A stretch of DNA of 64,000 bases from Patescibacteria group bacterium (GCA_041651155.1 JBAZJU010000005.1:2653-66652), one strand, 5' to 3'; shown: positions 56,039 through 59,128, numbered from the stretch's first letter. Numbers and translations: made by a program. Notes: generated by a model from the sequence alone, not told the origin.

Positions 56039-56085
56039 GGGATAAATAAAACACTGATTTATATTCACAGATTACACTGATATAA

Positions 56086-56117
56086 AAATAGCTCTTTGAA
56101 AGAGGAGCTATTTTTTT
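56086..56117 (+). terminator. Rho-independent terminator after fusA
   Basis: AAATAGCTCTTTGAAAGAGGAGCTATTTTTTT. Confidence 0.65.
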
Positions 56118-56193
56118 ATTTTATAAAAATATTGACAGAAAAAATATAGGTGATAAAGTAATAAAAAATACTTTTTTCAAAGGAGGTAAAGAA

Positions 56194-56400
56194 ATGGACG
56201 CACCTGAATTTGTCAATAGAGTTGGGGATACTGTGGAGGTAGACGATATCCATGGTTCTTCTGATTCAGTAGTATTAAATCTTACTGAAGAAGAACAGAG
56301 ATTTTTTCGGTCTGTGGAACATAGCCAAATTCCTTTTATGATGGGCCTCCTCAACAAATGCGCAGCAAAAGGCTTCCAGTTAGGAAAAATTTCAAAATAA
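56194..56400 (+). CDS. Hypothetical small acidic protein (68 aa)
   Basis: SD AAAGGAGG 7 nt upstream. Confidence 0.45.
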   Translation: MDAPEFVNRVGDTVEVDDIHGSSDSVVLNLTEEEQRFFRSVEHSQIPFMMGLLNKCAAKGFQLGKISK

Positions 56401-56536
56401 ATTTTGCGTAAGAGTAGAATTTAAAAAAACTATTAAAATGACCTAGCGATAATTTCAAAGGGTCTTTTTTTGTATATTTTTGACTTCATATTGATTTGCT
56501 GATAATCTTTAAGCAAATTTTTCAAAGGAGGAAAAA

Positions 56537-56863
56537 ATGAGTTTCTGTTCTTTTTGCGGCAGCACGCCTGAGGGGACAGTTTTAATCGCATTTGACGAAA
56601 AGGTAAATGCCGGGATATGCGATACTTGTATTGTACTTTGCGGGGAAGTAATCGCAAACCCTACAGAAAAGGATATTCCTGAAGTTAGTTCAAAAGGTGA
56701 AAGCCATTGCACATTTTGTGGAAAAAATTCCCAGGAAGTTGGGGTATTGATTAGAGGGCCAGCTGGCAAAGTATATATATGCAGAAATTGTTTAAAAGCA
56801 GCAGCTGCAAGCATAATAAGTACTTTGCAAAATTTTCAATCAACTCAAAAACCTAACAACTGA
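56537..56863 (+). CDS. Stand-alone protein with two ClpX-type C4 zinc-binding (ZB) domains and no AAA+ module
   Basis: CSFCGSTPEGTVLIA...GICDTCIVLCGEVI and CTFCGKNSQEVGVLIRGPAGKVYICRNCL both match the ClpX N-terminal zinc-finger consensus. SD AAAGGAGG upstream. Confidence 0.7.
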   Translation: MSFCSFCGSTPEGTVLIAFDEKVNAGICDTCIVLCGEVIANPTEKDIPEVSSKGESHCTFCGKNSQEVGVLIRGPAGKVYICRNCLKAAAASIISTLQNFQSTQKPNN

Positions 56864-56869
56864 TGGCGA

Positions 56870-57182
56870 TTTAATTATGCAATGGCCAATGGGTTAAGAA
56901 ATAACCCATCTCCCACTCTGTGGAGATCCATTATCGGGGCCATGGCGCCTTAAAAAGGGGAAATAACCCAGACCAATTGCTAAGGCAAATAATGGCTAAA
57001 ACGGCCTGCCGAAGCATTGGGTGCTAACTGAAATCAGCCATAAAATGCTTTGTGCTGATCATCAGTTTTGCTGGAAATAACCAAAAATTAAATATCTTTT
57101 GTGATCATCCCAGCATAGCGCGGTAGCTAACACTCAAAACCCAATAAACAGGCTCGAATCCTCGGGCCTGTTTTAATTTTAA
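56870..57182 (+). ncRNA. Candidate small non-coding RNA (~300 nt, no ORF, moderately GC-rich, several helices) ending in a strong terminator at 57146-57180
   Basis: No ORF on either strand. AACAGGC-TCGAATCCTCGG-GCCTGTTTT terminator. The next gene is ~450 nt away, behind the repeat element. Confidence 0.25.
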
Positions 57183-57300
57183 TAATCAAATCTCAAATGC
57201 CAACTCACAAATAAGCTTCAAATCATAAATTCCAAATTTCAAAAGTTTGGTTATTGGGATTTGGTTATTGGTTATTATTTGGAGCTTGGTGTTTGAAGAT
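57181..57300. repeat. Intergenic repeat copy B (same family as 1718-1820)
   Basis: AAATCTCAAAT ... CCAAATTTC ... TTGGTTATTGG ... GGTTATTATTTGGAGCTTGGTG. Confidence 0.45.
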
Positions 57301-57631
57301 TAGAATTTAGATAGGTATTGTGTATAATTCGTGAATAAAGTTGAGTATAACTGTGTGGTTAAGTATGTAGATAACCATGTGCGTAAAGATGTTGATATTT
57401 TGTTTATAATTAGCCAAAAAAGGGCTTGACTAGGTTTTTATAATAATATATAGTTAGAGCATAAAACCCTACTTGTTTACTAATTGATTAATCTTAGCTT
57501 TGGAGACAAAGCCGGTTTCTCAGTGTAGTTCTCTGGTGGGGCTTAAGAAAAATTGCCCATCTGGGTGATTTTTTTTGTGTCTAAAAAATGATTAAGAAAA
57601 AATTAACAATAGGTTTTGAAAGGAGGATTTC

Positions 57632-58534
57632 GTGAGTCCAAAACTTTACGACTTAGCGCCCGAAAGAGATTTCGTTTTGTTTAATCCAGAAACCAAATAT
57701 CTAATTCTGGCGCTGACTGAAAGGTTTAAAGAATTAGAAAAGGTTAAAGGATTAAAAGCAACAGAAACTTTTCACCTTGATTGCCTGGCAAAAAATCTAG
57801 GTCAATCACCCAGCATCATTGAAGTAGCTGACTGCTTATATAATAATCAGCAATTGAAATGGAATTGGAAAGATCTTTTGCCAGTAGTTTTGGCAGATTG
57901 TCTTTATCCGTTTCATGCTGATAGTTATCATCATTCAGTCAGAATGGCAGAAATCGTGCAATTTTTAAAAGAAGAGTACAAACAGCGCGGTTTTGCCAAT
58001 TTCCCCGATTTCGGCAATAAAGATTTTGCTGAAATTACGCGAAATTTAGAGATGACTGAAGATGACTGGGCCTGTCTTTTGGCTGCAGCTTATCATCATG
58101 ATGGCGGAAAAATGGGCTTGCCCGTGGGATTTTGGAATAAACCAGGAGAGTTTAACGCCAAAGAAAAAGAATGTCGCAAAGTCCATCCAGGCCTATTTTT
58201 TCCGATCGGTGAAATGTTAGGCGTACCTTTAAAAGTAACGGCTTTGAATATTGCCCATCATTATCTTAATCTTGGCTATCCAAATAATGGTCTGATCAAA
58301 TGTTTTCAGGACATCATTTTTGAGCCAAAATTTAAGGTAATTCTAATCATGCTGATTACCTTAGATTGTTATGATGGGATGAGGGGACCTCGTGATTATC
58401 GGGTAAATTTATTCAGCCATGATCAGGTTATGGAAAATTTACCCCAAGAACTTGGTCAAATGGGTACTATTTTTATGCCATTGGTGGAATTAGTCAATTC
58501 TTCCGCCATTGGCCGGCAATTGTATCCCAATTAA
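57632..58534 (+). CDS. HD-domain phosphohydrolase, possibly divergent HD-GYP-like (300 aa); GTG start
   Basis: YHHDGGK (H..HD) and HHYLNLGYP motifs. SD GAAAGGAGG upstream of the GTG. Confidence 0.6.
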   Translation: MSPKLYDLAPERDFVLFNPETKYLILALTERFKELEKVKGLKATETFHLDCLAKNLGQSPSIIEVADCLYNNQQLKWNWKDLLPVVLADCLYPFHADSYHHSVRMAEIVQFLKEEYKQRGFANFPDFGNKDFAEITRNLEMTEDDWACLLAAAYHHDGGKMGLPVGFWNKPGEFNAKEKECRKVHPGLFFPIGEMLGVPLKVTALNIAHHYLNLGYPNNGLIKCFQDIIFEPKFKVILIMLITLDCYDGMRGPRDYRVNLFSHDQVMENLPQELGQMGTIFMPLVELVNSSAIGRQLYPN

Positions 58535-58640
58535 GCCATTACATCTGTTTGAGAGCCGCTTAGCCAAAACTAAGCGAAGCGGCTCTTGACTTTCTTTTTA
58601 CTTTTAGCTAAGATAAGATATATTCTAGATAAATTCATTT

Positions 58641-58961
58641 ATGAAAGATTTAAAGAAAATTTTAGAACTATTACGAAAAACAGGAGACCGTTTTATTTTA
58701 GAAGATGAAAAGGGCAATCTTTTTGTAGTTTTATCAGCGAATGATTATGAGAATTTAATTTTAAAAAATAGTGAATTAAAGAATTTTTCCGAAGAAGAAC
58801 TTTTGAACAAAATTAATAAAGATATCGCGGTTTGGAAGTCAACGCAAGAAGATGAAAAATTATTGGAACGCTGGCAAGATTTAAATCCTGCCCAAGAGGA
58901 AAAAGATAAAAAAGAGGAGCCTGACCAATATTATTTTGAGCCGGTTGAAGATGAGGATTAA
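58641..58961 (+). CDS. Hypothetical acidic protein with a weak Phd/YefM-antitoxin-like N-terminus (106 aa)
   Basis: DRFILEDEKGNLFVVLSANDYENLI resembles the Phd/YefM core. No adjacent toxin gene. Confidence 0.4.
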   Translation: MKDLKKILELLRKTGDRFILEDEKGNLFVVLSANDYENLILKNSELKNFSEEELLNKINKDIAVWKSTQEDEKLLERWQDLNPAQEEKDKKEEPDQYYFEPVEDED

Positions 58962-59128
58962 AAAATACTTGCCATATTTTGCGAATGTGGTATAATAAAA
59001 AATACATTTTAATAAATTAAAAAATAATCCCAAAGCGATCCCTTTGGGAGAATAATTAGGGAAGCGGCTGGATAACACTCAGCCAGTTTTAGCGGTTGAG
59101 GCTGCTTCGACGGAGTATTAAAAATACT

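Follow-up and report, generated by a model that had tools for sequence, protein, structure and literature searches.

The interval between fusA and tuf in a Patescibacteria group bacterium comprises a conserved block and a variable slot of small genes

The gene string rpsL-rpsG-fusA-tuf forms the canonical str operon, in which fusA and tuf are contiguous, lie tens to about 200 bp apart and share one transcript. In a 64,000-nucleotide (nt) stretch of DNA from a Patescibacteria group bacterium (GCA_041651155.1 JBAZJU010000005.1:2653-66652, the whole of which is called the window here), the two genes are separated by 3090 bp. A reading of the sequence alone had taken this interval for an accessory insertion of about 3 kb into a normally contiguous operon, and the operon itself for a hotspot of regulatory or stress modules. 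The question raised by this locus is whether the interval was indeed inserted, or whether it belongs where it is. The comparison with related genomes answers that the interval consists of two layers, a conserved block at 57319-59128 and a variable slot at 56116-57318, a reading that we hold at a probability of about three in four.

Two sets of loci were compared, 80 taken around EF-Tu from species-representative genomes, and 22 (L081-L102, 13 of them distinct; L084, for example, is identical to L085 and L094) taken around homologues of two proteins encoded in the interval, an HD-GYP family phosphohydrolase and a small acidic protein resembling the antitoxins Phd and YefM. The gene order fusA, variable slot, HD-GYP gene, gene for a protein of 100-110 amino acids (aa), tuf and rpsJ is found in all of L081-L102. 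The block, made of an array of 9-mers, a leader RNA, the HD-GYP gene and the Phd-like gene, is at this site in 13/13 distinct relatives, down to 26% identity of the HD-GYP protein. Similarity to the window at the DNA level runs through fusA to 56115 in L091, stops at or just after the fusA stop codon (56038-56088) in the other relatives, and restarts in all relatives at 57316-57320, some 310 nt before the HD-GYP gene begins. As judged from this synteny, the right-hand 1.8 kb or so (array, leader, HD-GYP gene, YefM-like gene and tuf control region) is an ancestral, family-wide arrangement, although one that carries no known housekeeping functions. The left-hand 1.2 kb or so (a 68-aa gene called orf68, a zinc-finger gene, an RNA gene and a repeat) is, by the same comparison, accessory cargo in a hypervariable slot. 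The proposed accessory insertion is thus retained for the left part and lost for the right, and the hotspot applies to the junction after fusA, which holds 0 to 4 orphan genes, and not to the HD-GYP and Phd-like genes, which are fixed there.

The premise of a normally contiguous pair fails in Patescibacteria as well. The gap between fusA and tuf exceeds 300 bp in 18 of the 20 Patescibacteria loci that contain both genes (median 911 bp, maximum 6.3 kb) and stays within 227 bp in 28/28 loci from other phyla, where an apparent gap of 816 bp is an artefact of a split alignment. Since a gap above 300 bp occurs in 18/20 loci against 0/28 elsewhere, contiguity of fusA and tuf is not the Patescibacteria norm. 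The junction between rpsG and fusA is also enlarged (9/20 Patescibacteria loci against 0/23 others). A literature search returned nothing on str-operon structure in the candidate phyla radiation (CPR), and one paper that bears incidentally on HD-GYP proteins there. The window keeps the gene order and orientation of the canonical operon, with the S10 operon next, and differs from it in a terminator after fusA, in a promoter and leader before tuf, in a MazG-like gene between rpsG and fusA, and in a gap of 3.1 kb with four genes and two RNA elements. These parts, namely the four open reading frames (ORFs), a structured segment with its terminator, a repeat copy and the MazG-like gene, are all present where the sequence-only reading had placed them. 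The features are as follows.

52559-52987, + strand: rpsL (ORF listing)
53020-53490, + strand: rpsG (ORF listing)
53590-53940, + strand: MazG-like NTP pyrophosphohydrolase, 116 aa, between rpsG and fusA (Pfam MazG)
53963-56038, + strand: fusA, encoding EF-G (Pfam GTP_EFTU, EFG_III, EFG_IV, EFG_C)
56084-56115, + strand: intrinsic terminator after fusA, 14-bp stem and T-run, left border of the variable slot
56132-56159, + strand: putative promoter-like site for orf68, TTGACA-16-TAAAGT with TG (10/12 in a consensus scan)
56194-56400, + strand: orf68, 68 aa, slot cargo (ORF listing, homologue in L091/L092)
56432-56478, + strand: 47-nt terminator-like segment ending in a T-run (89-91% identity to L081 9641-9686 and L086 6091-6135)
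56537-56863, + strand: stand-alone protein with two ClpX-type C4 zinc fingers, 108 aa, slot cargo (Pfam)
56860-57175, + strand: structured RNA gene outside the Rfam classes, about 290 nt plus terminator (fold, homologues, covariation)
57182-57300, no strand assigned: copy of a palindromic, CAAAT/ATTTG-rich intergenic repeat, about 120 nt (80% identical to 1714-1821)
57319-57409, + strand: eight head-to-tail 9-mers, unit TGTGnATAAnTA, period about 12 nt, left border of the conserved block
57426-57454, + strand: promoter-like site of the leader/HD-GYP unit, TTGACT-17-TATAGT (-35 TTGAC and spacing invariant in nine loci)
57461-57576, + strand: leader RNA, about 115 nt (conserved hairpin and terminator)
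57632-58534, + strand: HD-GYP family phosphohydrolase, 300 aa (motifs, PDB profile match)
58586-58614, + strand: putative promoter-like site before the Phd-like gene, TTGACT-17-TAAGAT, directly after a hairpin at 58553-58585
58641-58961, + strand: Phd/YefM-like small acidic protein, 106 aa (Pfam, AF2 model, family scan)
58969-58996, + strand: predicted tuf promoter, TTGCCA-16-TATAAT with TG (11/12, the best promoter match in 9 kb)
59003-59128, + strand: structured tuf 5' leader, about 125 nt (conserved in nine loci)
59129-60316, + strand: tuf, encoding EF-Tu (Pfam GTP_EFTU, D2, D3)
60406-60747, + strand: rpsJ (ORF listing)

The conserved block is best approached through its leader RNA. An irregular 75-nt hairpin with a GAGA tetraloop (57467-57541) is followed by a terminator (57545-57576, stem UUGCCC/GGGUGA and U8), and the HD-GYP gene starts 55 nt past the end of the leader. 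In eight loci, L095 among them, about 117 nt of leader match the window at 80-94% identity, and the HD-GYP proteins of these loci are 39-85% identical (39% in L095); conservation of the leader is therefore decoupled from divergence of the protein. The alignment contains 42 base pairs that are 98% paired, three of which changed on both sides, and the loop of the terminator alone varies freely. In the distant L098 and L100 the leader keeps its 5' AACCCUACUUG and its closing GGGGUU and U-run, with the apical half replaced and the promoter, 5' end and terminator in place. This unconserved apical part argues against a conserved ligand-binding aptamer, and a terminator-based attenuator or a short, stable transcript would suit the leader better than an RNA with a conserved pocket for a ligand. 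Among the alternatives to a simple attenuator, that of a stand-alone gene for a small RNA, or of a riboswitch sensing a ligand, survives best; we regard it as possible, though the less likely choice. It draws on stems and internal loops that are near-invariant above such divergent proteins, on the leader's own predicted promoter and terminator, and on its position upstream of a phosphodiesterase of the cyclic-dinucleotide type. It is met by the exchange of the apical half in L098 and L100 and by the database results. Run on the leader alone, Rfam returned no family or riboswitch class, its chance matches at E <= 10 lying far below the gathering scores, and a profile search with nhmmer found the leader once per locus and nowhere else in 1.6 Mb.

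The enzyme that follows carries the motifs HHDGGK, HP, HHYLNLGYPNNGL and LDCYDGMRGPRDYR, which are invariant among four homologues together with the metal ligands H95/H101, H156-D157, H185, H209-H210 and D245/D248; a word-index homologue search with the protein returned four proteins. Its profile matches V-cGAP3 of Vibrio cholerae (5z7c, 6.9e-6) and PmGH of Persephonella marina (4mcw, 7e-4) in the PDB over residues 135-260, and it shares with both the HD, HP, HH...GYP and DxYD motifs. The GYP motif is present, as HHYLNLGYPNNGL aligns with the motif region of V-cGAP3, with Tyr in place of Glu. The canonical HD-GYP motif has the glutamate of HHE, so that the window protein departs from it at this residue. 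It also differs from V-cGAP3 and PmGH in having no receiver or known sensor domain, and its N-terminal 95 residues or so belong to no family. We consider the 300-aa protein a probable member of the HD-GYP family, with a predicted phosphodiesterase activity.

Between the enzyme and tuf lies the gene for the YefM-like protein, which combines a Phd/YefM-like N-terminal domain with a strongly conserved helix, ELLNKINKDIAxWK, and an acidic, disordered tail whose last residues are YYFEPVEDED. Its match to Pfam PhdYeFM_antitox is weak (2.9e-5, 24.2 bits against a cut-off of 29.8), and 25 of 41 diverse members of its family match PhdYeFM at E <= 0.01, the best at 7e-9. The AlphaFold2 (AF2) model (mean confidence score, pLDDT, 71) has an alpha-beta-beta-alpha order followed by a long helix. 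Foldseek gave its best probabilities to YefM (0.8-0.87) but at E > 0.3, its search of the PDB had no match at E <= 1e-3, and a sequence search of the PDB returned nothing significant. The family is large, with 1273 clusters at 50% identity in a HMMER scan at E <= 1e-3 and 665 at 1e-10, and the members that were looked up, including a cluster look-up of ten, bore no informative names or taxon. Compared with the Phd/YefM type II antitoxins, the window protein may share the N-terminal fold and has a disordered acidic C-terminal part, and its family differs in the lack of the first beta-strand, in its own helix (INRDIAxWK) and in the C-terminal YYFEPV tip. It also differs in its surroundings. No toxin gene (Doc, YoeB or similar) adjoins it; its neighbours are tuf and the HD-GYP gene, the same holds in 21 loci, and tuf remains its neighbour across many lineages. 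The gene stands directly upstream of tuf, with no HD-GYP gene, in L001, L002, L004, L005, L008, L016, L023 and L040. In L033 (9552-9842) and L053 (9533-9820) a different conserved acidic protein of about 95 aa (MKYLPDEIIKEWGL...) is encoded directly upstream of tuf, preceded by an ORF of 1134-1547 aa. Because these two loci carry a different protein, the position before tuf is filled by small acidic proteins of more than one family.

The assignments of the HD-GYP, double ClpX-type zinc-finger and Phd-like proteins made earlier, and the separation of fusA and tuf by four genes, are upheld by motifs, Pfam and PDB profiles. So is, at the level of sequence, the possibility that tuf has its own promoter: the pattern ACTTGYCAA ... 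TGnTATAAT is kept in nine loci. The leader that follows contains the block UUAGGGAAGCGGCUGGAUAAAACUCAGCC...GGUUGAGGCYGCUUC, both arms of which vary in L081, L095 and L096, and matches no Rfam family. The tuf gene starts at ATG 59129 and not at TTG 59096, and its leader ends just before the Shine-Dalgarno sequence, and for this reason may be an element that controls translation or stability for EF-Tu. Because promoter and structured leader are conserved in nine loci, tuf is probably transcribed independently in the window.

The variable slot presents a different picture, its contents differing among relatives as follows.

L089, L096 and L100: slot empty
L081: a 58-aa ORF
L086 and L102: a 67-aa ORF
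L083: ORFs of 151 and 182 aa
L098: four orphan genes
L091: homologues of the zinc-finger gene and orf68, in reversed order relative to the window
L095: the RNA gene
L084: the end of an ORF like that of 58 aa, then the RNA gene

On the tree of HD-GYP proteins this cargo is patchy, the RNA gene being found in the window, L084 and L095, and the zinc-finger gene with orf68 in the window and L091, a distribution in keeping with genes being gained and lost time and again at a single junction prone to recombination. The homologue of orf68 in the slot of L091/L092 is 47% identical (tblastn 3e-15), and orf68 had no match in Pfam, NCBIfam, PADLOC or PHROG. The zinc-finger protein matches Pfam zf-C4_ClpX over two stretches (1.2e-16), its second finger matches the zinc-binding domain (ZBD) structures 2ds7/1ovx of E. 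coli ClpX at 8e-5, and its nine cysteines are invariant in the L091 homologue (46% identity); a word-index homologue search with it returned only itself. It shares with the N-terminal domain of ClpX the C4 finger with CSFCGK...ICxxC and differs from ClpX in its two tandem fingers, its length of 108 aa, its single homologue found and the absence of an AAA+ ATPase module (NCBIfam ClpX 44.6 bits against a cut-off of 359). Both ORFs are real genes: homologues with 46-50% identity occupy the same slot in L091/L092. Compared with L081 and L086, the window has an indel of about 840 bp (56479-57318) that comprises the zinc-finger gene, the RNA gene and the palindromic repeat, and whose left edge is marked by the terminator-like segment 56432-56478, since its counterparts in L081 and L086 abut their 9-mer arrays. 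The palindromic repeat has three copies in the window (57182-57300, 1709-1826 and 50973-51074; nhmmer), and nhmmer also found weak look-alikes in intergenic regions of other Patescibacteria.

The sequence-only reading had seen, between fusA and tuf, an ORF-free segment of about 300 nt with a terminator. A structured RNA with a terminator is there, between the zinc-finger and HD-GYP genes, within an ORF-free stretch that extends to about 770 nt (56864-57631, no ORF >= 40 aa) and has four distinct parts: RNA gene, palindromic repeat, 9-mer array, and promoter with leader. With a folding energy of -102.7 kcal/mol, the segment 56860-57185 lies far below shuffled sequences (-79.3 +/- 5.0, z = -4.7), and the RNA gene ends in a 12-bp terminator at 57146-57173. 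Homologues lie at the same site in L095 (4118-4484, 367 nt, with its own promoter and the same terminator) and in L084 (112-425, about 315 nt), and nhmmer aligns the window copy at E = 1e-16. The three RNAs have in common the blocks TAACCCAGACCARTNGYTAAGG, CGAAGCNTTGGGTGC and GCGCGGTAGCYAAG and a helix that closes the 5' and 3' ends. Their alignment yields 35 consensus pairs, 90% paired, of which 10 carry two-sided changes, against 4.8 +/- 1.5 in shuffled alignments (0/500) and 0-2 in slid controls. The window copy is closed by a weaker helix (UGAUGGC/GCUAACA, one mismatch), whose 5' strand overlaps the zinc-finger stop codon. Because no good promoter was seen before the window copy, its RNA may derive from the 3' portion of the zinc-finger transcript. 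Presence in three deep branches makes the gene probably old at this site, where ten relatives lack it; a profile of the RNA detected no additional copies in 1.6 Mb (nhmmer). In L091 the terminator stem of the RNA gene (ACAGGCUCG...CGGGCCUGU, 6526-6560) follows the orf68 homologue without the RNA, and may be a relic of its loss.

Could this RNA be a highly diverged RNase P RNA (rnpB)? We think this unlikely for 56864-57175. The size of 290-345 nt, the closing helix, the promoter and terminator of the L095 copy, and a GGUGAAAGUCC resembling conserved region I (CR-I) in L095 and L084 all speak for it. A GGG-GAAA-CCC hairpin followed by GACCA also occurs, which may correspond to the P9-P10 region of E. 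coli M1 RNA. In the CPR, RNase P RNA is known to evade Rfam (PMC8172020): Lui et al. 2021 needed thresholds below the noise level to detect rnpB in 10 of 35 circular CPR genomes, with the bit-score threshold of RF00010 lowered to about 5 bits (PMC8172020). The slot RNA shares with these diverged RNAs its size, a closed architecture of several helices and its invisibility to Rfam (Lui et al. 2021, PMC8172020), but differs in having no recognised conserved regions or P4 helix and in not being universal at the site. The motif like CR-I is missing from the window copy, which has GCAAUGGCC, and its covariation is that of a local hairpin; a motif like GAAAGUCC, in two of the three members, pairs locally and was found on manual inspection to have no complementary 3' strand; and neither P2/P3, nor a 3' strand like ACAGAA/CCGGCUUA, nor a P4 pairing was found by inspection. 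The absence of the gene from this site in ten relatives adds to this. Rfam run on the RNA alone (341-406 nt; window, L095 and L084) identified no family, and no RNase P match (RF00010/RF00011) even at E <= 10, and a scan at gathering thresholds for rnpB between fusA and tuf in eight other Patescibacteria loci found nothing. The slot RNA is otherwise best described as an unclassified structured RNA. Across the window and the interval, Rfam at gathering thresholds and at E <= 10 reported two tRNA genes outside the interval and otherwise chance matches, and ARAGORN found no tmRNA or tRNA within it. Signal recognition particle RNA, 6S RNA, tmRNA, a T-box and a cobalamin riboswitch were also considered for both RNA elements, and were set aside on inspection of their defining motifs and on the absence of Rfam matches.

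It is highly improbable that the whole 3 kb, with orf68, the zinc-finger, HD-GYP and Phd-like genes, was recently inserted as an accessory or stress module into a contiguous str operon. The separation of fusA and tuf, the variability of the left part of the interval and the repeat-family copy within it are what such an event would leave. For 57319-59128 the view is largely refuted by the occupancy of the site in every distinct relative, by the Phd-like gene preceding tuf in other Patescibacteria lineages and by the splitting of the pair in most Patescibacteria loci.

Restricted to the slot is the possibility that its cargo is a mobile element or an anti-phage defence islet targeting the fusA terminator, which we judge highly improbable. 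Different orphan genes do occupy one site in different genomes, small proteins like the ZBD are also found in phage families (PHROG 9e-8), and the palindromic repeat adjoins the cargo. Against this, the interval 56040-59128 has no recombinase gene, no flanking direct repeats and no compositional break of the kind that marks a mobile element or genomic island, and the RNA gene looks ancestral at the site. The cargo shows no integrase, transposase, defence or phage signature in Pfam, PADLOC or PHROG, and its proteins across the relatives have no Pfam family, the zinc finger excepted. PADLOC returned no meaningful match, its sole one (LmuC, 0.0086, with no matched stretch) being to the Phd-like protein, which is not slot cargo, and PHROGs gave no phage assignment that explains the locus. 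The G+C content of the window is about 31-40%, and the interval is set apart by nothing beyond normal intergenic AT-richness.

The left border of the conserved block is formed by the 9-mer array. Each unit is the reverse complement of the DnaA-box consensus TTATNCACA, and all eight are 0-2 mismatches from TGTGGATAA (TTATCCACA) on one strand, a range of at most two mismatches being that reported for the boxes of analysed origins, T. maritima excepted (PMC4285127). Of the 83 matches to TGTGNATAA in the window (one mismatch allowed, both strands), seven fall on one strand inside these 90 bp. A unit-by-unit table of nine loci shows the array kept as a whole, and in the 1.63 Mb of sequence scanned for copies of the array, the RNA and the leader, clusters of such 9-mers occur only at this site, in every relative that bears the HD-GYP gene (13). 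We infer a promoter-proximal DnaA-box cluster, with DnaA binding predicted. Clusters of DnaA boxes outside the replication origin (oriC) include those of B. subtilis, datA of E. coli and DnaA-regulated promoters. The array resembles them in having several boxes of the same orientation next to a promoter, and differs in its eight boxes of strict period near 12 nt, its conservation within a family and its tie to one gene. As the site has neither a switch in GC skew nor a dnaA gene close by, the array is read as such a cluster, and the notion that it marks the chromosomal oriC is scarcely credible: eight same-orientation sites in AT-rich surroundings near a promoter recall many origins, but GC skew keeps its positive sign across 57 kb, the genes to either side point the same way, neither dnaA nor dnaN is nearby (dnaA is not in the window), and no DnaA-trio-like repeats or clear unwinding element follow the last box. 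The array was also considered as a binding site of the YefM-like protein and rejected, as loci with this protein and no HD-GYP gene lack the array.

Taken together, the interval would be a chain of separate transcription units. The conserved block would have been passed on vertically within a Buchananbacteria-like family of Patescibacteria, and the slot between the fusA terminator and the array would gain and lose small orphan genes by recombination. The firing of the leader/HD-GYP promoter may be set by DnaA or by some other protein with affinity for direct repeats. Transcription would then have to read through the leader terminator, and the leader may thus act as an attenuator that limits HD-GYP expression. 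The YefM-like protein may be a conserved partner or regulator tied to tuf, and not an antitoxin. The nearest species-representative genomes by EF-Tu are all metagenome-assembled genomes of Patescibacteria (73-83% identity, the nearest 83%), and the HD-GYP protein shares 85% identity with one from Candidatus Buchananbacteria RBG_13_36_9.

Several points weigh against this account. Its functional statements all derive from sequence. The relatives are metagenome contigs picked through one protein family, so that absences of cargo hold for this site only; a metagenome scan with the HD-GYP alignment added two loci, both duplicating loci in the set. The 12-nt period of the array differs from the 11-nt spacing of the low-affinity arrays in E. 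coli oriC. The leader could be an independent small RNA rather than an attenuator. The HD-GYP protein matches Pfam HD at 0.02, below the cut-off, and not HD_5, and its AF2 model, built from four sequences, is poor (pLDDT 52). The slot RNA family has three distinct members only, of which the window copy is weakly closed and lacks a clear promoter of its own.

Upstream of fusA, the MazG-like protein matches Pfam MazG (6.5e-7, 30 bits against a cut-off of 22) and a MazG-like PHROG (6e-9). Its gene is at the same place in L083, L086, L089, L091, L100 and L102 (tblastn identity, in those compared, 46-78%), its position in L095 and L096 is taken by an unannotated ORF of similar size, and it is not present between rpsG and fusA in L081. 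A 50-aa DUF5679 zinc-ribbon protein (3.9e-14) is encoded at 51219-51371 on the minus strand, upstream of the M50 peptidase/rpsL region and beside rpmB, and recurs at the same position in L082, L086, L089, L091, L092 and L096. A few kb upstream of rpsL, the Buchananbacteria relative (L081 3029-4423, L082 883-1890) contains a pair of bAvd and reverse-transcriptase genes like that of a diversity-generating retroelement, a module with no equivalent upstream of rpsL in the window.

Farther away in the window, 23317-31422 encodes a 2701-aa SpvB/FG-GAP/RHS-repeat protein, and 32019-33572 and 36014-37537 are near-duplicate RHS-repeat ORFs of about 510 aa, one with an Ntox44 toxin domain, with small ORFs between them that are possible immunity genes. 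The layout of 23317-37537 looks like a polymorphic-toxin locus with orphan C-terminal cassettes. A cluster resembling type IV pilus and type II secretion systems follows at 38588-46358, with a T2SSE ATPase (2e-129), a T2SSF platform protein and ORFs with pilin-like N-termini. Two adjacent ORFs of equal length (169 aa, 8344-8853 and 8893-9402) are apparently paralogous. GC skew changes sign near 3 kb (about 3400-3680), at the divergent pair of RNase Y and IF-2, and dips at 46.7-51.7 kb, a stretch of minus-strand genes.

Three leads stand out as the most promising: the unit of array and leader, the large nameless YefM-like family and the unclassified RNA gene. A bolder proposal, which we offer as speculation and think rather unlikely as a whole, is that the block is an undescribed Patescibacteria regulatory unit in which an array of the DnaA-filament type gates a promoter, a near-invariant leader RNA of a new class serves as a sensor or binds a protein, the HD-GYP enzyme is controlled by this leader, and an orphan acidic protein of YefM fold (more than 1200 nameless clusters) acts on EF-Tu or on tuf expression; the slot RNA, in addition, may be a new structured class, or an RNase P RNA reduced beyond recognition of its defining regions. 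If true, such a unit would couple replication state and nucleotide signalling to the supply of translation factors. For a group in which few regulators are known, the locus offers testable objects in an eight-box array, a constrained leader, a large YefM-like family and an RNA gene that the libraries do not recognise. That an apparent insertion in a single genome is partly ancestral matters for automated calls of islands and hotspots. The string rpsL-rpsG-fusA-tuf serves as a synteny anchor and a marker of operon conservation, yet it is systematically broken in a whole bacterial radiation, and in one family the break between fusA and tuf has a fixed architecture.

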